This document shows positions 4,073-57,618 of a stretch of DNA of 64,000 nucleotides, piece by piece (position 1 is the stretch's first letter; each line of letters starts with the position of its first letter). The translations under genes were made by a program, and so were the position numbers. The notes below the pieces were generated by a model that had not been told where the DNA came from, made no database searches, and was given only the letters and a program-made list of their open reading frames with translations. Origin of the DNA: Candidatus Kaiserbacteria bacterium (GTDB lineage Bacteria; Patescibacteriota; Minisyncoccia; Phycocordibacterales; UBA918); NCBI GenBank assembly GCA_031430855.1, contig JANPCG010000013.1:26347-90346 (forward strand). Reading direction: 5' to 3'.

Positions 4073-4495
4073 ATGTTTAAAAAAATACTGATTGGGTTCT
4101 TTGCGTCGTTAGGAATAATTTTCTTCTGTATCCTGGTTGGTCTCGCGTATCTAATTATCGCTGATCCTTTCAATCTACGCCCGATGGTCTCATTGTTGCT
4201 TCAAACTCAAGCCGAACAGTCGGAAAGTAGTGGGGGTACTATCATAAAAGACGAGTTGCGAGGTGCCCCGGTGCCGACTGGAGAAAGTGATATTTCGGTG
4301 GAGTCGGCTACTGATATTTCTGTTACGAGCGAGCAGTCGAAGGCAATGGAATCAGTTGGTCTTTCTCCGAATTCAATTTCAGCAGATCAAGAGGCTTGTT
4401 TTGTGGGTATTCTCGGACAGGCTCGTGTTGATGAGGTTAAAGCCGGAGCTGTACCTTCAGCGAGTGAGTTCTTCAGTGCGCGTGAGTGCTTGTAA
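4073..4495 (+). CDS. Hypothetical small exported/membrane protein
   Basis: ORF with N-terminal TM segment. Low complexity, no recognised domain. Confidence 0.35.
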   Translation: MFKKILIGFFASLGIIFFCILVGLAYLIIADPFNLRPMVSLLLQTQAEQSESSGGTIIKDELRGAPVPTGESDISVESATDISVTSEQSKAMESVGLSPNSISADQEACFVGILGQARVDEVKAGAVPSASEFFSARECL

Positions 4496-4539
4496 GATGC
4501 AATCATTTTTCGGTATCGAAAATCAAATTTTATGCTAGT

Positions 4540-6420: not shown

Positions 6421-7674
6421 TTGAAACACACATTAGCAGAGGTAATTCAAGATATAACCTATCATCCCGAAGATCGGACTGAGCGCCTGCGCGCACTCTC
6501 GCTTCCGGAGCAAAGCGCCACCGTAGTGGCGCTTTCGCCGTATGTGCAACAGCAACTCCTGCAAGAACTAAAAACAGGAGAGATAGTGAACATCCTTGAT
6601 CACCTGGACTTATTAGCGGCACAAATTGTCCTGCGTAGAATTAAAGACATCAGGCGTCGACAAAAAATTGTGCAACAATTAAAATCCGAAGTAAAAGAAA
6701 AAGTTGAACATTTTTTACGATTTCACCCCAAAGCCACTCTTTCATTGGTACACTTTAATTATGTGTTGCTACCAGCTAAGAGCACTATTGGAGACGCAGG
6801 TGATATTATTGATATACACTATAAGCAAACGGGTAAATTTCCTGAAGTTCTCGTCCAGTATGACGGGACGCTGGTGGGTGAGGTCTCGCTTGCGACTTTG
6901 GTACGCGAGCGTAATACGTTGTTGCTAGAGCATTTCATAAGTCCGGTAACGACCCTTTCGTTTCATGCAGAGATGTCAGAAATTATCGAGACGTTAACTG
7001 TTTCTAAACGAAAAAAGGTAATTGTGCTTGATGCTGATGAAAGTGTCCTGGGAATTATTTATGCTGATGATGCGATTGACCTCTTTGGAAAAATGCCGGC
7101 TGAATCACTCTATAGTTTCGCCGGAGTGGACAGTAGTGAACGACCATTTGATAGTTCCTATGATAAGTTCCGAAATCGATATAAATGGCTGGTACTCAAC
7201 TTAGCGACCGCTTTTTTTGCTGGGTCAGTCATTTTACTGTTTCAAGACACAGTTGAAGCATTGGCCATTCTTGCGGTGTATATTCCGATTGTAGCAGGGA
7301 TGGGTGGTAATGCGGCGAGTCAGACGTTTGCAGTTATGTTACGTGGTATTACCTTGGGAACTGTATCATTAAAAATTGCGGGTCCTGCCATCCTGCGAGA
7401 ATCGATAGCGGGACTTTACAACGGCTTGGCAATTGGAGCTATTGTATCCGTTATCTCCGTTCTCTTTAATGGAAGTGCATTGCTTGGTGTGGTCGTTGCG
7501 CTCGCCATGATAGCTGTACATGTGGTAGCTGGATTCTTTGGTGCACTGGTGCCACTTCTCGTCAAAGTGGCAGGAAAAGATCCCGCTGCTGTCTCAATGA
7601 TTTTTATTACCACTGCGACTGATGTATTCGGTCTCTTGGCCCTCCTCGGTTTTGGTGCCCTCCTTTTGATGTAG
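6421..7674 (+). CDS. mgtE: Magnesium transporter MgtE
   Basis: MgtE-N region, CBS-like region, and C-terminal TM domain with GMGGNAASQTFAVMLRGITLG. TTG start in the ORF track. Confidence 0.85.
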   Translation: MKHTLAEVIQDITYHPEDRTERLRALSLPEQSATVVALSPYVQQQLLQELKTGEIVNILDHLDLLAAQIVLRRIKDIRRRQKIVQQLKSEVKEKVEHFLRFHPKATLSLVHFNYVLLPAKSTIGDAGDIIDIHYKQTGKFPEVLVQYDGTLVGEVSLATLVRERNTLLLEHFISPVTTLSFHAEMSEIIETLTVSKRKKVIVLDADESVLGIIYADDAIDLFGKMPAESLYSFAGVDSSERPFDSSYDKFRNRYKWLVLNLATAFFAGSVILLFQDTVEALAILAVYIPIVAGMGGNAASQTFAVMLRGITLGTVSLKIAGPAILRESIAGLYNGLAIGAIVSVISVLFNGSALLGVVVALAMIAVHVVAGFFGALVPLLVKVAGKDPAAVSMIFITTATDVFGLLALLGFGALLLM

Positions 7675-7684
7675 TCAAAAAACG

Positions 7685-8038
7685 TTATTGCGTGTGTTTG
7701 CAGGTTCCGCGAACCGTTAGTTCTAGTCCAGTAATAGAAAATTCCTTCAATCCAAGCAAAGCCTTGATTTTTTCATCAGGCGCGTCAAAGTGAATTACTT
7801 TTTTGCAGTCACTGCAAACAGCGTGGTGATGGGGACGGGCTTGGTATTCGTATGTAGCTTCGTTGCCGTCTAGGTGTAATTTTTTAATAATGCCCTCGGC
7901 TACAAACAAATCAAGGTTACGATAAATAGTTACTTGGTCGATCGCCGGCAGCAGTTTGTGAATAGTACTTGCCGACAGTGTCCCGTGACTTTTTTCGAGC
8001 GTCGCAATAATTTCTTTACGGTGTTTAGTGAGTCGCAT
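7685..8038 (-). CDS. zur: Fur-family metalloregulator (probably Zur)
   Basis: 117 aa with HHHAVCxxC...C metal sites and a winged-helix N-terminus. Divergent from the ZIP transporter gene. Confidence 0.75.
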   Translation of the reverse strand: MRLTKHRKEIIATLEKSHGTLSASTIHKLLPAIDQVTIYRNLDLFVAEGIIKKLHLDGNEATYEYQARPHHHAVCSDCKKVIHFDAPDEKIKALLGLKEFSITGLELTVRGTCKHTQ

Positions 8039-8070
8039 AGTATGAATAGTGTATCGTTAAGTGTGTATAA

Positions 8071-8116
8071 ATGCAATTTATTTGCATATTTATAGTGAAT
8101 TTGGTAGTATGCAAAT
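8071..8116. promoter_or_regulatory. Candidate Fur/Zur operator in the divergent promoter
   Basis: Palindrome ATGCAA-tttat-TTGCAT (8071-8087) plus an extra half-site ATGCAAAT (8109-8116), lying between zur and the ZIP gene. Confidence 0.4.
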
Positions 8117-8162
8117 CAGTTGCGTTTGGCTGATTAATACGTTTTTAATTTATAGTGAGTAT

Positions 8163-9026
8163 ATGTTAATAGAGATTTTATTGGCGGCTGGCGCGATTAC
8201 TGTGGCGTCACTCGTGGGGGTATTGTTTACCGCCAAAGTGGCGCGGGAGTTTTTGTCCAGTCGGTTATCATTCTTGGTGTCTTTTTCAGCGGGAGTTTTT
8301 TTAGTCACTTCAGGAGCTTTAGCGCTTGAGGTGTTTGAAATTTACGAGGGTGCACTATGGCAAGGGATTGGATTAATTTTAGTGGGGTATGGTCTCGCGT
8401 GGTTTGTAGAAAAAATGCTACCTGAGTCACACCATCATCATGATCCTTATGATCATGATGGACATACGCATACAAAAGTCGGAGCACGCAAACTTTTGAT
8501 TGGTGACGCAATTCATAATATCGGAGACGGAATTATTTTGGTGCCAGCCTTTTTAGTTTCGCCGGCACTCGGATTGGCGGTCACTGCATCGATTTTTATT
8601 CACGAAACACTACAGGAAATTTCTGAATTTTTTGTCCTTAAACAAGCTGGCTATAGTACGAGACGAGCGCTGACGTTAAACTTCCTGACCGCCAGTACTA
8701 TTTTTATTGGAGTAGCGTTAAGCTACGCCGCTATTGCAACCGAAGAAATGGAGGGGCTTTTGCTTGCGGTTGCGGCTGGATTTTTTATTCATGTGGTGGT
8801 GCACGACTTATTGCCACGTCCCCACCATCACGAAACTACCAAACGATTTTTTCAGCATGTGATATTTGTAGCCGTAGGCTTAATGTTGATGGCAGGTATT
8901 GCAAGCGCCCTCAGCGAAAGTCATACTCATGGTGTCGAGTCTGGAGTAGAACATACTGACGGCACACTACACAGTGAGGGAGATAGTCATGTGGATCATG
9001 AAAGTGAGGCGCAGGTTGGAGGGTAG
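8163..9026 (+). CDS. zupT: ZIP-family zinc/metal transporter (ZupT-like)
   Basis: Multi-TM protein with His-rich loops (HHHHDPYDHDGHTHT) and the ZIP signature HNIGDGIIL. Start placed at MLIEILLAAG. Confidence 0.8.
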   Translation: MLIEILLAAGAITVASLVGVLFTAKVAREFLSSRLSFLVSFSAGVFLVTSGALALEVFEIYEGALWQGIGLILVGYGLAWFVEKMLPESHHHHDPYDHDGHTHTKVGARKLLIGDAIHNIGDGIILVPAFLVSPALGLAVTASIFIHETLQEISEFFVLKQAGYSTRRALTLNFLTASTIFIGVALSYAAIATEEMEGLLLAVAAGFFIHVVVHDLLPRPHHHETTKRFFQHVIFVAVGLMLMAGIASALSESHTHGVESGVEHTDGTLHSEGDSHVDHESEAQVGG

Positions 9027-15884: not shown

Positions 15885-17678
15885 ATGAGTATTCCAATCA
15901 GAAATTTTAGTATTATTGCGCACATTGACCACGGTAAGTCTACCTTGGCTGACCGTATGCTCGAAACCACACGAACCGTTGAGGCGCGTAAAATGCAGGC
16001 CCAGGTGCTTGATTCGATGGAACTCGAGCGGGAGCGTGGTATTACTATAAAAATGCAGCCGGTGCGGATGCACTATGTTCATGCAGGTGTGGACTATCAG
16101 TTAAACCTGATTGATACACCGGGACATATCGATTTTTCTTACGAAGTATCTCGCGCCCTAAAAGCGGTAGAAGGTGTGCTCTTGTTGGTTGACAGTACCC
16201 AAGGTATTCAGGCTCAGACACTCACGACGCTCCAGATGGCCAAAGAGCAGGGACTCACTATTATCCCGGTTCTTACCAAGACCGACATGGGTCACTCACG
16301 TCCCGAGGAGGTAGGAGAGTCAGTTATGAAGTTGTTGGGGTGTGCGCGTGAAGATATTCTGTTAGTGTCAGGAAAAACGGGCGCTGGGGTTCCTGAACTA
16401 TTGGAGGCAATCTGTGAACGGATTCCCGCACCACGTCCGAGTGAGCTTGATGCGTATCGGGGACTCATTTTTGACTTCACCTACTCGAATCATCGAGGAG
16501 TAATTGTCTTTATGCGGGTGTTTGATGGTGAAGTGCGTAAGGGAGACCAGGTGTGTTTTGTGGCGGGTGGAAAGAGTTTTACTGCGCTTGAGGTAGGAAT
16601 GGTAACTCCAAACGAAGTACCCTGTGAACGAATTAGTGCCGGTGAAATTGGATATATCGTAACGGGAATTAAAGAGCCAGGAGTAGCAACGGTGGGAGAT
16701 ACCTTAACGCTTGAGAAAAAGCCGGCGCCGCCACTTGCCGGCTATGCTCCCGCTCGTCCCGTTGTCTGGGCCTCCATCTTTCCTGACAGTCAGGACGACT
16801 TCACGATTCTGCGTCAAGCCCTCGATCGTCTAAAGCTCTCTGATTCATCACTCTCCTACGAAGAAGAGTCCTCAGGTGTGTTAGGTCGGGGATTCCGCTG
16901 TGGTTTTCTCGGAATGCTCCATCTCGAAATTGTAACCGAACGTTTGAAGCGCGAATTTAATATTGAAATTATTATTACTGCGCCGTCTATTGCGTACGAG
17001 GTAACCTATGACGATGGAACGGTAGAATCAATTTACGCCGCTTCGCGTTTTCCAGAACATGGAGTAAGCGCATCAATTCGTGAACCGTGGCTCTTGGGAC
17101 AAATTATTGCCCCGCCTGAGTACGTCGGTAATATCATGAACCTCTTGTTTGATCATGAGGGAAGTGTGCTTGAAACGGAGGTGTTAACTGACGGTCGTAA
17201 CTTGGTTACGATTGAGATGCCTCTCCGAGAACTAATGCGGAACTTTTTTGATAAGCTTAAAAATGCGAGTAGTGGGTACGCGTCACTCTCTTATGAAATT
17301 GCTGAGATGCGACCGGCTTCAGTCGTACGTCTTGATGTCTTGGTGGCGGAAGAGTTGATTACCGCGTTTTCTCGAGTAGTCGGTGAACGGCGAGCTGAAT
17401 TTGATGCTCGCGCGACAGTAGAAAAGTTGTATGAGATTTTACCGCGGCAGCAATTTGTCACCAAAATCCAAACCAAAGTGCGCGGCAAGATTATTGCCTC
17501 AAAGACGATTTCTGCCCTCAAAAAAGATGTAACCGGCTACCTCTACGGTGGAGACATTACGCGGAAGATGAAGCTCCGAGATAAACAAAAGAAGGGCAAG
17601 AAGAAGGCGTTGGAGTTGGGGAAGGGGAGGGTGAATATATCACAAGATGTATTTATGAAAATGCTGAAAAGTGACTAA
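15885..17678 (+). CDS. lepA: Elongation factor 4 (LepA)
   Basis: GTPase motifs AHIDHGKST and DTPGH, plus the LepA-specific C-terminal domain. Confidence 0.9.
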   Translation: MSIPIRNFSIIAHIDHGKSTLADRMLETTRTVEARKMQAQVLDSMELERERGITIKMQPVRMHYVHAGVDYQLNLIDTPGHIDFSYEVSRALKAVEGVLLLVDSTQGIQAQTLTTLQMAKEQGLTIIPVLTKTDMGHSRPEEVGESVMKLLGCAREDILLVSGKTGAGVPELLEAICERIPAPRPSELDAYRGLIFDFTYSNHRGVIVFMRVFDGEVRKGDQVCFVAGGKSFTALEVGMVTPNEVPCERISAGEIGYIVTGIKEPGVATVGDTLTLEKKPAPPLAGYAPARPVVWASIFPDSQDDFTILRQALDRLKLSDSSLSYEEESSGVLGRGFRCGFLGMLHLEIVTERLKREFNIEIIITAPSIAYEVTYDDGTVESIYAASRFPEHGVSASIREPWLLGQIIAPPEYVGNIMNLLFDHEGSVLETEVLTDGRNLVTIEMPLRELMRNFFDKLKNASSGYASLSYEIAEMRPASVVRLDVLVAEELITAFSRVVGERRAEFDARATVEKLYEILPRQQFVTKIQTKVRGKIIASKTISALKKDVTGYLYGGDITRKMKLRDKQKKGKKKALELGKGRVNISQDVFMKMLKSD

Positions 17679-17756
17679 ATGTCACTTTGAAGACCTTGCC
17701 TGCTACTTTTGAATTTATGAAAAAGTAGTGACAAGGTGTACTGACGACTGTAAGGC
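17671..17756 (+). repeat. Structured repeat element (GTGAC-N5-GTCAC dyad plus hairpin), copy 1, overlapping the lepA stop codon
   Basis: Shares a ~75-nt architecture with 20134-20210. The dyad and flanks are conserved, and the hairpin stem differs by compensatory changes. Confidence 0.5.
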
Positions 17757-17894
17757 GAAAAGCGACTGATTTCAGCCCATCTACTTTGTCGGCATTCAAA
17801 AAATGTCAGTCGCCGTATAGAAATACGTCTTCCTACATTTTTATCTGCCTTCTCGTAGCTGGACTAAAATCCCTCACTTTTAAACTCAAAGAGA

Positions 17895-19861: not shown

Positions 19862-20133
19862 CCGCGTACAGAAAGCCCCGCAAGGGGCTATTTCTGTACC
19901 CGGTGCTTGGGGAGTAAAGCGCCTGCGCGCTTTACGTGCGGGCTCGAAAGGCGCAGACATGTGTTGCTCGTAAGAGCAACAAGTCGAGCCGGGGTCGCGA
20001 ACACTTTGTAGATTATGAGCGTAGCGAAATAATGTACTTAGTGATTCGTGACCGGGCCCACCCCACAAGGGGCTATTTCTGTACCCGGTGCTTGAGGAGC
20101 AACTTACTAATATCAGTTGCGTGCGGGTGAGGA

Positions 20134-20210
20134 GTGACTTAATGTCACTCCGCAAGACCTTGCCAGCTCTTTTGGAAAAAGAGCTGGCAAGGTATACAGT
20201 TTCTGTAAGA
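20134..20210 (+). repeat. Structured repeat element (GTGAC-N5-GTCAC dyad plus hairpin), copy 2
   Basis: Paralogous to 17671-17756, with perfect hairpin ccttgccagctcttt-tggaa-aaagagctggcaagg. Confidence 0.5.
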
Positions 20211-20272
20211 TCGGCGCGTCGGGGTCGAGAGTACTTACTAGAATTAGAGCCGAAGGCGAACAAATATAGTTA

Positions 20273-29102: not shown

Positions 29103-29175
29103 TTTCGGCATTAGGAATAGCCGAAACAACGCTCCGTCGTTCGATCCCTGGACGAAACATGCGCAGGCATGTTTC

Positions 29176-34061: not shown

Positions 34062-34230
34062 TTTGGTATATCCTCCGATGTTGGTACCAAGGGTAATAAA
34101 TTATCACATTATTGAAAAATGTCAAATGGGGGTGGGTGGCGTTTGGGTATTATTTGAGCGCGAAATTGAAGCCTTTTGCTCTGTGGTCATCACTCGAGTA
34201 CGAAACTGAAGCAGTTCAGAAAGCCCTCGT

Positions 34231-34321
34231 GGTCACGAATCACTAAGTATATTTGTTCACTGCGTTCCAAATCTACTAAGTGTTCTCGACCCGAGAAACA
34301 GTGTTTAGACACTGTTTCTCC
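34231..34321 (+). repeat. Modular intergenic repeat, units A+B
   Basis: A-unit: ggtcacgaatcactaagtatatttgttcactgcgttccaaatctactaagtgttctcgaccc. B-unit hairpin: gagaaacagtg-tttagac-actgtttctcc. The units recur at 56.7 kb, 57.1 kb and 36.4-36.7 kb. Confidence 0.55.
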
Positions 34322-34380
34322 GACGGTTTCTTTTTTCTATAAATGAAAAAGAAACATCGCTGCGGTTATCACAACGGCCC

Positions 34381-34447
34381 GCAAGTGACGCAGGTCACTT
34401 GCTAGATTAGAAAATACCCCAGCATTTGCTGGGGTATTTTCTAATCT
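34381..34447. repeat. Pair of perfect hairpins (GCAG-loop hairpin plus 20-bp AT-flanked hairpin)
   Basis: gcaagtgac-GCAG-gtcacttgc, then tagattagaaaataccccagc-attt-gctggggtattttctaatcta. Confidence 0.5.
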
Positions 34448-34830
34448 GCCGTTGTGTTCCCACGGGTAATGATCCTGACGGTCACCAAGCTATATTTTTT
34501 CATTTCATTCAAAATCTAGCAGGTGCCGCGGGACACGCCTCATTCATAGCAAAGCTATATCATTCCGGCGTTTCGATTACCGCAAAAGACACGCAGATGT
34601 CTTTTTCGTGGGATCACGCAACAAAAACGGCATTCACAGATGTGAATGCTCGTTTTTGTACGCGTGATCCCACGGGTAATCGAAACCCGATTTTCAGGAT
34701 GAAAACCTGATGTCCTAACCGTTAGACGATGGGACCCTAATTCCTAGGGTTTGTAACTTCATTCCTTAGGTGCGCACTATAATACCAAAAAAGTCAAAAA
34801 AAGCTAGTCATAAGGACAAGTTTTCTCTGT

Positions 34831-34870
34831 TGCGGAAGCGAGAGGATTCGAACATTACATGTTCGGTACA
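34831..34870 (-). repeat. Partial direct copy of the tRNA-Ser 3' end (23 nt) plus conserved junction palindrome
   Basis: tgcggaagcgagaggattcgaac matches 34953-34975 exactly. It is followed by ATTACATGTTCGGTACA, forming GAACAT-TAC-ATGTTC. Confidence 0.6.
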
Positions 34871-34954
34871 CCTTTCGTATCGTACCCACTCCGTTCCGTG
34901 CGATGTACTTAAGGTCTTCAAATCCTCTTTTGAAACTGACGTTTCAAATTCCTG

Positions 34955-35042
34955 CGGAAGCGAGAGGATTCGAACCTCCGAGGAGCTTTCACCCCTGCCG
35001 CTTTTCGAGAGCGGTACCTTCAGCCAGCTCAGACACGCTTCC
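34955..35042 (-). tRNA. tRNA-Ser (anticodon CGA)
   Basis: Class-II tRNA. Acceptor GGAAGCG/CGCTTCC, anticodon arm ccgct-ctCGAaa-agcgg, long variable arm, T-loop GGTTCGAATCC. Confidence 0.85.
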
Positions 35043-35324
35043 AAGCGTATAGCTAACAAGTATAACATTGCGGGCAAATATTTCGGAATTTGGAGGCAGA
35101 TTTCACTAACAGTTATACAGCTATTTATATACCTAGTTTTACCCCTAGTTATCCTCTGGCTTTTCCCCATGATATACACAGGTACTATTAAAAATATGGG
35201 TTTTATACTTTATTGACGAGAGTTTCCTATGTGAGATGCTTATTGCAGGTTTGCATGGTGGTGATTTTCTCCATACTAAAACTCTTTTGGGTTGGGGCAT
35301 GCAAGCCAAATCTCTACGTTGTAC

Positions 35325-36425: not shown

Positions 36426-36487
36426 GGTCACAAGTTACTAACCATAATCATTCGCTACGCTCTGATTCTAGTAAGTACTTGCGACCC
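36426..36487 (+). repeat. A-unit repeat copy (36.4 kb, a)
   Basis: ggtcacaagttactaaccataatcattcgctacgctctgattctagtaagtacttgcgacccc. Confidence 0.5.
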
Positions 36488-36603
36488 CGGCGGGCTGGTT
36501 CAGGGCATTAGTAATAGCCCTTCACATCGCTCCGCCTCGCCGTTCCGGCTTCTTGCTAGTCAAAACTTATTTAAGTTTTGATCGACGCAAGAAAGCCGGC
36601 ACC

Positions 36604-36665
36604 GGTCACGAGTCACTAATCATAATGGTTCGTTTCACTCCCCTTCTGATAAGTGCTCGCGACCC
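36604..36665 (+). repeat. A-unit repeat copy (36.6 kb, b), in the ftsZ 3' region
   Basis: ggtcacgagtcactaatcataatggttcgtttcactccccttctgataagtgctcgcgacccc. The terminal stem covaries with copy a (caag/cttg versus cgag/ctcg). Confidence 0.5.
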
Positions 36666-36715
36666 CGCCTTGCTGTCTCGGCTTCGCCTCGTATCGCTGC
36701 GGCCGGCAGTGCCTT

Positions 36716-56236: not shown

Positions 56237-56353
56237 ATGAGAGTAACACGAAGAGAGTGCGCGCGTGCGAGGTGACGGGGGCACCGCGCAAGACCATTTG
56301 AGCTTATTTTGACCGAAGGGAGTAAATGAGCCAAATGGTATACAGCTTCGGTA

Positions 56354-56386
56354 CGAAGAGGACTTGAATCTTACAGATTCTGTACA
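56354..56386 (-). repeat. Degenerate partial copy of the tRNA-Leu(TAG) 3' end plus covarying junction palindrome
   Basis: gaagaggacttgaatc, compared with the tRNA's gagaggacttgaacc. It is followed by TTACAGATTCTGTACA, forming GAATCT-TAC-AGATTC. Confidence 0.5.
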
Positions 56387-56432
56387 CCTTTTGGATATAT
56401 TCTCCCGCCGGTCGAATCTATCGCAAAAGGTT

Positions 56433-56485
56433 TTGAAACAGTTTCCCAAACTGTTTCAACCTCCACGGATTGCTCCATTAGTTCC
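56433..56485 (-). repeat. Perfect 12-bp hairpin plus a 28-nt exact copy of an internal tRNA-Leu(TAG) segment
   Basis: ttgaaacagttt-ccca-aactgtttcaa. aacctccacggattgctccattagttcc matches 56528-56555 exactly. Confidence 0.5.
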
Positions 56486-56509: not shown

Positions 56510-56591
56510 TGCGCGCGAGAGGACTTGAACCTCCACGGATTGCTCCATTAGTTCCTAAGACTAACGCGGCTACCAATTACGCCACACGCGC
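56510..56591 (-). tRNA. tRNA-Leu (anticodon TAG)
   Basis: Class-II tRNA. Acceptor GCGCGTG/CGCGCGC (one G-U pair), anticodon arm ttagt-ctTAGga-actaa, long variable arm, T-loop GGTTCAAGTCC. Confidence 0.85.
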
Positions 56592-56672: not shown

Positions 56673-56767
56673 GGTCACAGATAATTTCTTTCATAAATTT
56701 CCGCGACCCGAGAAACAGTGTTTAGACACTGTTTCTCCCACTGTCGCAGGGCGACATGTCTCCGTCT
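56673..56767 (+). repeat. Modular intergenic repeat, units A'(short)+B+C
   Basis: ggtcacagataatttctttcataaatttccgcgaccc + gagaaacagtgtttagacactgtttctcc + cactgtcgcagggcgacatgtctccgtct. Confidence 0.55.
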
Positions 56768-57020: not shown

Positions 57021-57090
57021 TATTAAGTTGTGGGCCAAAGTGTACAAGATTATGACCAAATTAACAAGGTATTAGTAGGGGCGTGACTTG

Positions 57091-57186
57091 GTCGCAAATC
57101 ACTAAGTATATTTGTTCACTTCGTTCCAAATTTACTAAGTGTTTGCGACCCCGACTCAACTGTCGCAGAGCGACATGTTTCCGTCT
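57091..57186 (+). repeat. Modular intergenic repeat, units A+C
   Basis: ggtcgcaaatcactaagtatatttgttcacttcgttccaaatttactaagtgtttgcgacc + caactgtcgcagagcgacatgtttccgtct. Confidence 0.55.
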
Positions 57187-57299
57187 TTCAAGTCCCGCAC
57201 GCAAGCAAAGCAGTTTGCTTGCTCCCCGGCACAAAATACAACTACCGCAAGCTATTGCTTGCGGTAGTTGTATTTTGTGCCGGGGAGCGGGACTTGAAC
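57187..57299. repeat. ~110-nt palindrome made of two inverted copies of the tRNA-Leu(TAA) T-arm/acceptor 3' segment around a perfect 19-bp hairpin
   Basis: Left arm ttcaagtcccgc[gcaagcaaa-GCAG-tttgcttgc]tccccggcac. Centre aaaatacaactaccgcaagc-tatt-gcttgcggtagttgtatttt. Right arm gtgccggggagcgggacttgaa. Confidence 0.55.
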
Positions 57300-57316
57300 A
57301 TTACATGTTCGGTACA
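57277..57316 (-). repeat. Partial direct copy of the tRNA-Leu(TAA) 3' end (23 nt) plus junction palindrome
   Basis: gtgccggggagcgggacttgaac, compared with the tRNA's gtgccgggagcgggacttgaac. It is followed by ATTACATGTTCGGTACA. Confidence 0.6.
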
Positions 57317-57429
57317 GGTTGTCGCCACTTTACTTCGCTTCCAGCTCATAAAGTTGCAGGCAACCTTTTCAAGTCCCTGGGGCAAATGCAAAAACTCCCC
57401 AGATAAAAATCTGAAGAGTTTTTACATTG

Positions 57430-57513: not shown

Positions 57514-57618
57514 ACTGACTTTTTTATGGAATCTTCCGTTACACGGACCGTATCCGTTGTCGCTATATTATTTCACTTCGTTCATAATCTAGCAGCCAAC
57601 AGCTTCGATTCCCTTGTC

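Follow-up and report, generated by a model that had tools for sequence, protein, structure and literature searches.

Downstream of the tRNA-Ser(CGA) gene in a 64,000-nt stretch of a Candidatus Kaiserbacteria genome (contig JANPCG010000013.1; the whole stretch is called the window below) lies a 122-nt unit that contains a displaced copy of the tRNA's own 3' end. We interpret this unit as one copy of an ancient, Patescibacteria-wide family of structured-RNA modules in the 3' trailers of tRNA and transfer-messenger RNA (tmRNA) genes, a structural and genetic reading that we hold with moderate confidence. On this reading the displaced repeat supplies a tRNA mimic with its 3' strand and is not an att site. 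What carries it is the anatomy of the module, the covariation of its helices, the strand on which helix P2 is selected, its distribution, and the way each copy varies together with its cognate tRNA. The family is apparently undescribed: it has no match in Rfam 15, and in the literature searched we found no paper on the module, the nearest one describing group I introns in the anticodon loops of Patescibacteria tRNAs, a different kind of element.

A copy of the tRNA 3' end closes a three-way junction

tRNA-Ser(CGA) is intact and lies on the minus strand at 34954/5-35042 (ARAGORN and Rfam); it does not encode CCA and ends in N73-C-A. A repeat search recovered the exact 23-nt duplication of its 3' end, with 99 nt between the copies, that an earlier note on this DNA had described. 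The repeat, TGCGGAAGCGAGAGGATTCGAAC, occurs with 100% identity at 34953-34975 (X, the copy inside the tRNA) and at 34831-34853 (the displaced copy), 122 nt from start to start. Read on the tRNA strand it is GTTCGAATCCTCTCGCTTCCGCA, and it runs from G53/T54 at the T-loop to the discriminator plus CA. The 99-nt spacer begins with a hairpin, finishes with GGTGTACCGAACATGTAAT and has no open reading frame (ORF) in its interior, and the flanking genes are trxB and tRNA-Glu.

All parts of the unit are read on the minus strand. Directly 3' of the tRNA's CA stands GGAA (34949-34952), which repeats tRNA positions 1-4 and, in the fold, is a truncated acceptor 5' strand pairing with UUCC of the displaced copy; across other Ser-tRNA loci this pairing covaries, GGAA/UUCC against GGAG/CUCC. 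Hairpin hp1 (34929-34948; UUUGAAAC-GUCA-GUUUCAAA as RNA) is the hairpin TTTGAAAC-GTCA-GTTTCAAA immediately 3' of tRNA-Ser that the earlier note had seen there. It is not terminator-like, and it is kept in other Ser-tRNA loci with compensatory changes. The next segment had been overlooked: within the spacer, at 34917-34928, lies a 12-nt antisense copy of the T arm (AGAGGATTTGAA; as RNA AGAGGAUUUGAA, called X'), antisense to the T-loop and the 3' strand of the T-stem, which pairs with the displaced copy (11 of 12 positions complementary, one G-U) as the 5' strand of helix P1. The final three bases of X', GAA, are the invariant GAA of the junction.

Hairpin P2 (34871-34915; A-CCUUAAGUACAUCGCACGGAACGGAGUGGGUACGAUACGAAAGG) is of the 'K' subtype and is closed by an A paired with U34870 (fold and alignment); it contains tandem G-A pairs, and GA flanks its tip. 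That U and junction segment J2/3 (GUACC) occupy 34865-34870 and are nearly invariant in the 122 distinct covariance-model hits described below. P3 (34850-34864; GAACAU-GUA-AUGUUC) is what the earlier note had taken for a conserved junction palindrome; it does recur in the window and proves to be one helix of a covarying three-way junction. The arms of P3 covary (UC/GA, CA/UG, CC/GG), and its 3' arm overlaps the opening bases of the displaced copy (34831-34853), which, from the repeat search and the fold, supplies the 3' strand of P1, the acceptor 3' strand, the discriminator and CA. The minimum free energy (MFE) fold of the Ser element contains hp1, P1, P2, P3 and the GGAA:UUCC pairing. No terminator-like site stands between tRNA-Ser and the module; there is one further downstream, after tRNA-Glu.

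The 18-nt junction GTGTACCGAACATGTAAT lies at 34854-34871 and again, with one mismatch, at 57300-57317 after tRNA-Leu(UAA), where it precedes a near-copy of that tRNA's 3' end; two matches in the window compare with 0.05 expected from shuffles. After tRNA-Leu(UAG) the dyad reads GAATCT-GTA-AGATTC against GAACAT-GTA-ATGTTC at Ser, both arms having been altered together.

The module recurs behind tRNA and tmRNA genes across Patescibacteria

We scanned a degenerate 21-nt junction motif, TGTACMGAAYMTGTAAKRTTC, against a collection of species-representative genomes. This search, which the earlier note had proposed, returned at least 119 genome loci, nearly all in Patescibacteria: Saccharibacteria, Paceibacteria/Parcubacteria, Nomura-, Kaiser-, Zambryski-, Woese- and Taylorbacteria, and Minisyncoccia, with several genomes supplying multiple loci. 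The same scan of 2.9 million viral contigs gave 0 matches. Motif contigs of Brachyspira and Pedobacter look like chance matches, while contigs of metagenome-assembled genomes (MAGs) labelled Thermodesulfobacteriota, Patiriisocius and Acidimicrobiales carry genuine-looking copies and may have been mis-binned. FtsZ and TrxB of the window resemble those of two motif-bearing MAGs at 67-70% (tblastx), one labelled Saccharibacteria and the other an unclassified uncultured bacterium; this likeness and the distribution of the motif point to a patescibacterial origin of the window.

The association with tRNA genes is close. At 74 motif sites a tRNA on the same strand has its end 65-260 nt upstream, and 18 isotypes are represented. 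At 29 sites the motif is directly followed by an exact copy, at least 21 nt long, of the upstream tRNA from T54 to N73-CA (repeats of 21-26 nt). Most of the remaining tRNA sites have the same copy interrupted after T-loop position 59 by an insertion of either 2 nt (AY) or 14 nt, the latter being the hairpin AAGCGUACUCGCGG with compensatory variants. Two Nomurabacteria MAGs have modules behind tmRNA (L034, 6660-7170; L074, 2538-3340), and there the copy derives from the T-arm and acceptor end of the tmRNA. The exact motif is commoner at Leu, Ser and Tyr tRNAs (41/64) than at other tRNAs (35/123), in a sample biased by selection of the loci through the motif. An arrangement of tRNA-Cys, tRNA-Leu(UAA) and module is seen in several lineages.

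Displaced copies also keep the tail typical of the sampled tRNAs, CA(A). Of the 187 tRNA genes in loci L001-L119 and the window, 99% encode C74, 75% have CA after the discriminator, 51% have CAA there, and only 11% encode the full CCA. The copy follows its own tRNA even where tRNAs have diverged. In five Ser-tRNA modules from different genomes (four of them with Ser(CGA)) the interiors are 79-90% identical and the Ser-tRNA 3' ends merely 72-84% identical for most genome pairs, and every module copy agrees exactly with its own tRNA for 21 nt or more.

Upstream of the modules in L029 (~4200-4520), L031 and L053 we observed a conserved stretch of ~250 nt (…ATTCCTCCCCAGACCCCTCCT…TAGCCGAG…) in which no tRNA, tmRNA or Rfam family was detected; this stretch may represent a tRNA with an intron or an RNA not yet recognised.

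Shared architecture of the family

Aligned modules share one order of parts. The tRNA is followed by hp1, often by an antisense acceptor 3' strand and a second hairpin, hp2, and then by X' (antisense T-stem 3' strand and T-loop); after these come GAA-R, A-[P2]-U, GUAC-M, P3 (GAAYMU-GUA-AKRUUC) and the sense copy of the tRNA. X' and the sense copy form helix P1, which closes the three-way junction. Of the modules, 49% have such an antisense acceptor segment 6 nt or longer, against 11% of shuffles.

In the MFE folds of two full-type modules (L118 and L057) a 7-10 bp acceptor helix, hp2, the T-stem helix and the three-way junction are all formed (z = -6.3 and -9.6), and the L057 module ends in CCUGGGC-A-CCA, as its tRNA does. 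In both, the acceptor-like helix stacks on one resembling a T-stem, and the N73(-CCA) end is left unpaired; the Ser module has this in part, with four acceptor pairs. The T-loop and elbow of a tRNA-like structure are absent from fold and alignment: X' pairs with the 3' part of an interrupted T-loop, whose place the junction takes. As modelled, the topology of the module is that of a tRNA-like minihelix: where a tRNA has its D and anticodon arms the module has hp2, and where a tRNA has its T-loop the module has the junction.

Hairpin hp2, which separates the antisense acceptor segment from the antisense T segment, has a loop that recurs as CUGC, often AACUGCUU, and its flanks AGC...GCGU are conserved. 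It is seen at many loci and, in the window, at ~34585-34605, 29150-29175, 19918-19938 and 57205-57225.

Covariation and strand bias in the module helices

In a hand-checked alignment of 40 copies, canonical pairs fill 88% of the paired cells, compared to 74% in column shuffles and 31-52% with slid partners, and double-sided changes number 164 where 54 are expected. A covariance model built from this alignment gave 126 hits in 98 loci, 122 of them distinct. Among the distinct hits, in an alignment fitted to the model, the paired share of cells is 89% as against 68%, and double changes amount to 562 as against 160. Two positions of P3 each show three types of pair. Among the distinct hits, most of which were recruited with the motif, the unpaired nucleotides of GAAR, GUAC and GUA hardly vary.

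The strand can be read from the wobble pairs. P2 contains 21 G-U pairs and a single A-C (one mis-aligned column set aside), and this excess indicates that P2 is selected as RNA on the tRNA strand. The earlier note had offered three readings of the locus, and of these the tRNA-linked structured RNA is best supported by the covariation and the P2 bias.

No known RNA family accounts for these signals. At the gathering threshold Rfam 15, whose families include hammerhead, twister, pistol, hatchet, group I and II introns, Y RNA and T-box, found only tRNAs in the window. With hits accepted up to E 10, nothing relevant appeared over 34200-35100, and 16 further loci likewise gave tRNAs and chance hits only.

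Other copies and neighbours in the window

The covariance model matches six times within the window. The recurrence at both tRNA-Leu genes that the earlier note had pointed out is real: modules lie after tRNA-Leu(UAA) (57283-57381, minus strand, 68 bits) and after tRNA-Leu(UAG) (56353-56446, minus strand, 49 bits). At the latter, a 28-nt exact repeat (56458-56485 and 56528-56555) covers tRNA positions ~39-55, that is, the anticodon-stem, variable-arm and T-stem 5' region, and stands directly 5' of the module; it ends at T55, and the module sits inside the T-loop of a partial tandem tRNA copy. A diverged module lies between tRNA-Cys and tRNA-Leu(UAA) (57521-57617, minus strand, 34 bits), and a weak copy is found in the long trailer of tRNA-Phe (20141-20225, plus strand, 23 bits).

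The remaining match is a diverged module directly 3' of the LepA stop codon (17678-17771, plus strand). Here (17666-17771) the last 13 nt of the gene, GAAAAGTGACTAA, recur after the core as GAAAAGCGACTGA with 11 of 13 identical, and an 8-nt antisense segment, an inverted repeat of the gene end (GTCACTTT), precedes the core. A module with local repeats after lepA means that the architecture is not strictly tRNA-bound.

We also observed a second repeat family in the window, a long hairpin GGGGUCGCRAAC...UUYGYGACC tipped by a mini-hairpin with GA and GAA on its two sides (19990-20050 on the plus strand; 34231-34321, 36459-36700, 56680-56740 and 57090-57160 on the minus strand). It lies in tRNA trailers, often closing on a degenerate tRNA 3'-end copy, and twice in the ftsZ-trxB spacer. 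At some loci the 21-nt motif stands in place of its GGGGUC start.

The window itself is an ordinary chromosomal region with FtsZ, FtsA, TrxB, GlmS, LepA, GyrA, IF-2, ClpB, a class I aminoacyl-tRNA synthetase, MurJ and others. Pfam scans of 40 of its ORFs found housekeeping genes only and no integrase, transposase, reverse transcriptase or RNA-guided nuclease (TnpB, IscB, Cas-like), and by blastn the window shares only the tRNA-Glu gene with phage records.

A predicted route from trailer to tRNA-like RNA

How the module might act can be outlined from its sequence, with lower confidence than the structural reading itself. It is most likely co-transcribed with the tRNA upstream. In the transcript X', in some modules preceded by the antisense acceptor and hp2, would pair with the sense copy running from the T-loop to N73-CA and close the three-way junction. 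RNase P would then mature the 5' side of the mimic, in the Ser type 2 nt past the tRNA discriminator, and the tRNA 3' endonuclease and the CCA-adding enzyme would mature its 3' end at N73. We infer processing by the tRNA end enzymes because the module keeps the acceptor end, N73-CA, or CCA where the tRNA encodes it. The precursor would thus be punctuated and a stable tRNA-like RNA released, whose junction might be bound by, or act on, a conserved partner. The identity of copy and tRNA could be kept by selection on mimicry, by gene conversion between the repeats, or by both.

A bolder extension, which we offer as speculation and think rather unlikely, is that many tRNA and tmRNA genes have beside them a 'shadow' tRNA-like RNA with the acceptor and T stems of its cognate. 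Such an RNA would share end-processing and possibly aminoacylation identity with its tRNA and would carry the conserved junction head as a ribozyme or factor-binding site, serving to punctuate precursors, to survey or repair tRNAs, or to put charged mimics to use outside translation; the module could even re-template itself from its host gene. The enrichment at Leu, Ser and Tyr tRNAs would fit this idea, LeuRS and SerRS being synthetases that recognise their tRNAs without reading the anticodon.

If the structural reading is right, a large, poorly understood bacterial superphylum of minimal genomes, the candidate phyla radiation (CPR), devotes 100-400 nt behind many tRNA and tmRNA genes to an RNA that mimics the top half of tRNA. 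The family would be a new class of tRNA-like RNA and a natural RNA element whose closing helix follows the sequence of its host gene. It would also offer a handle on the processing of CPR tRNA precursors, most sampled tRNA genes encoding N73-CA and not CCA. Since its repeats imitate attL/attR and pseudo-tRNA fragments, modules could be mistaken for boundaries of genomic islands.

Fixed RNA or mobile element

Several observations weigh against reading the family as a structured RNA maintained in tRNA trailers. Co-transcription and processing are predictions from sequence. In many loci hp1 resembles an intrinsic terminator, which would limit read-through. The mimic has no T-loop, and the Ser type forms only four acceptor pairs. 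P1, with 21 G-U and 17 A-C, has no wobble bias and could therefore be kept at the DNA level. The sample of loci was picked by the motif, so that conservation of the 21-mer is partly imposed by selection of the loci. Some further facts are left unexplained by a purely functional RNA. The P2 subtypes form a mosaic across tRNAs and genomes, and two subtypes stand in tandem at one tRNA, in L011. Copies follow protein genes, namely lepA and, as a tandem pair with its own local direct and inverted repeat, a coding sequence in L113. Finally, tRNA fragments are fused to modules. In L057 (520-880) the fragment is a tRNA-Arg(UCU) truncated to positions 1-53, together with 45 nt of its upstream flank; an intact duplicate comes after the module, so that the two form a direct repeat of 99 nt. 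In L076 (3289-3480) a tRNA-Leu fragment, positions 1-28, is joined to a module upstream of the intact tRNA-Leu.

The mosaic, the tandem subtypes, the copies at protein genes and the fused fragments all favour the rival that survives best: a non-autonomous mobile or selfish module, mobilised in trans, with the T-loop of tRNA or tmRNA genes (or of partial tandem copies of them) as its usual insertion target and other gene ends as an occasional one. The repeat would be a target duplication and the RNA structure would serve mobility, as an RNA intermediate or an internal guide. The left edge of the repeat points the same way, lying always in the T-loop between positions 53/54 and 56/57, as do whole hairpins repeated on both sides of the core (97 nt in L057, 78 nt in L045), the greater likeness of modules within one genome than between genomes, the placement of the tRNA-Leu(UAG) module within a partial tandem tRNA copy, and a tip swap between near-identical strains. 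On the other side, none of the 40 window ORFs encodes a transposase, integrase or reverse transcriptase, there are no viral copies, and the sampled Ser sites are all occupied. Simple insertion with target duplication cannot create a target-specific antisense segment, and conservation of a core across a superphylum is unusual for elements resembling miniature inverted-repeat transposable elements (MITEs). We consider this rival possible but doubtful.

Comparison of homologous tRNA-Ser loci, which the earlier note had also proposed, found the site occupied in all five other genome loci compared and in the one strain contig, in a sampling that favours occupied sites. The strain comparison drew on five contigs with identical FtsZ (metagenome contigs only), of which one, L123, reaches the locus; it is 99.5% identical over the aligned 7.5 kb including the Ser element, and the element sequence is identical. 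That note had held that the same arrangement in relatives, together with an absence of additional copies, would indicate a fixed structure; the first of these was found and favours fixed structure, and the second was not, as many copies exist.

L123 does differ from the window elsewhere. At 7470-8500 (opposite window position 34471) it has an insertion sequence with an rve-type transposase precisely between the tRNA-Glu long module and its displaced 3'-end copy, and the tip of that long module is swapped for a different tip sequence. In L011 (2150-3000, minus strand) three modules, of two P2 subtypes, stand in tandem behind a tRNA whose anticodon loop holds a group I intron, and the original trailer resumes after the last copy.

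The four X copies of L011 are identical despite diverged hairpins between them. This speaks for an old element under constraint, as do the conserved interiors of the Ser modules with copies matched to their own tRNAs, the recurrent arrangement of tRNA-Cys, tRNA-Leu(UAA) and module, and the Ser element of L123. Repeat length varies from ~13 to 99 nt across sites; exact-match searching for flanking repeats at the covariance-model hits is too strict for the T-loop-insertion variants, and the 'no direct repeat' classes it yields are underestimates. With its tandem subtypes and its copies away from tRNA genes, the family shows signs of past duplication or mobility. Plausibly, the T-loop of tandem tRNA copies is where modules originated or inserted, and they are now kept as RNA, with the copy matched to the tRNA by selection and/or gene conversion.

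Less probable explanations

The three-way junction could instead be a small, putatively self-cleaving or otherwise catalytic RNA that cuts the tRNA trailer, either in 3'-end processing or to release unit lengths from arrays. Its size (~70-100 nt), ~15 nearly invariant junction and loop nucleotides, a freely variable P2, the tandem arrays and the location at RNA 3' ends would all suit such an RNA, but no ribozyme class matches up to E 10 and the hammerhead core CUGAUGA is absent on inspection. We judge a catalytic RNA improbable.

Lower still we place palindromes and repeats formed purely at the DNA level, by template switching or slippage at terminator hairpins, and having no RNA function. Perfect long palindromes do link the acceptor 3' strand, hp1 and the antisense acceptor, and the lack of G-U bias in P1 agrees with such an origin. 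Against it stand the invariance of unpaired junction and loop nucleotides, the G-U bias and tandem G-A pairs of P2, and the 79-90% conservation of the interior.

An element resembling omega-RNA or CRISPR RNA (crRNA), in which a scaffold would carry a ~22-nt 'guide' equal to the tRNA 3' end and serve a nuclease or transposase encoded elsewhere, seems very improbable. Scaffold and hairpin are indeed followed directly by 21-24 nt that match the adjacent gene, but the window holds no TnpB, IscB or Cas-like ORF, and the reading is further weakened because the putative guide is paired intramolecularly with the antisense segment.

The direct repeat spans the T-loop to the 3' end, a sublocation typical of tRNA-targeting integrases, and the earlier note had seen in it the hallmark of attL and attR. 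We give hardly any credence to a scar of classical integrase insertion, and that part of the note falls: the insert is just 99 nt, no integrase or other recombinase lies in or near the element or among the 40 window ORFs, the same core stands behind many tRNAs phylum-wide with homologous sites occupied, the element contains an antisense copy of its target and covaries as RNA, and viral copies are absent.

Other candidates were tried and set aside. GAA-A with three stems resembles J(II/III) of the hammerhead; on inspection CUGAUGA and the one-nucleotide J(III/I) are missing. A dif/Xer-like site, an integron attC-like core (GTTRRRY), a retroviral-type primer-binding site and a k-turn each fit only in part. 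One example of a misfit is that the antisense segment is complementary to the CA(A) tail of the genome and not to mature CCA. Templating of the displaced copy from X' was rejected, as the copy matches the tRNA at 23 of 23 positions while X' has a G-U position.

Comparison with known systems

With attL/attR in tRNA and tmRNA genes the module shares the extent of the repeat (T-loop start to just past the 3' end), the use of tmRNA genes and tandem occupancy. It differs in its ~100-nt insert, the lack of a recombinase, the internal antisense, the covarying junction, superphylum-wide occupancy and the absence of viral copies. TnpB/IscB omega-RNA and Cas12 crRNA likewise have a scaffold that ends in a hairpin followed by ~20 nt from the flanking target, whereas the 3' segment of the module is paired intramolecularly and the window has no associated nuclease gene. 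The internal guide and exon-binding sequences of group I and II introns are, like X', inner segments complementary to a flanking host gene in a site-specific way; the module, however, has no intron catalytic core or Rfam intron hit, and the tRNA upstream is complete without splicing.

REP/BIME/REPIN, Correia, RUP and MITE-like elements are also multi-copy, hairpin-rich units of ~100-200 nt at gene 3' ends, with subfamilies, tandem combinations and homogenisation within a genome. The module has their many dispersed copies per genome. It lacks the terminal inverted repeats and fixed short target duplication of MITE and REP elements, its ends being host-derived (X' and X) and different at each site; its closing helix is taken from the terminal sequence of the host gene, and its core is conserved far past genus and species.

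Closest to the structured-RNA reading are the tRNA-like mimics: mascRNA at the 3' end of MALAT1, plant mitochondrial t-elements, viral tRNA-like structures and the bacterial Y RNA YrlA. Like them, the module mimics the acceptor and T-stem and has an N73(-CCA)-type end beside the 3' end of another RNA, and its sequence predicts that it is plausibly a substrate of RNase P, RNase Z and the CCA-adding enzyme. What sets it apart is that a conserved junction replaces the T-loop and that its stems copy the adjacent cognate tRNA, one module per tRNA.

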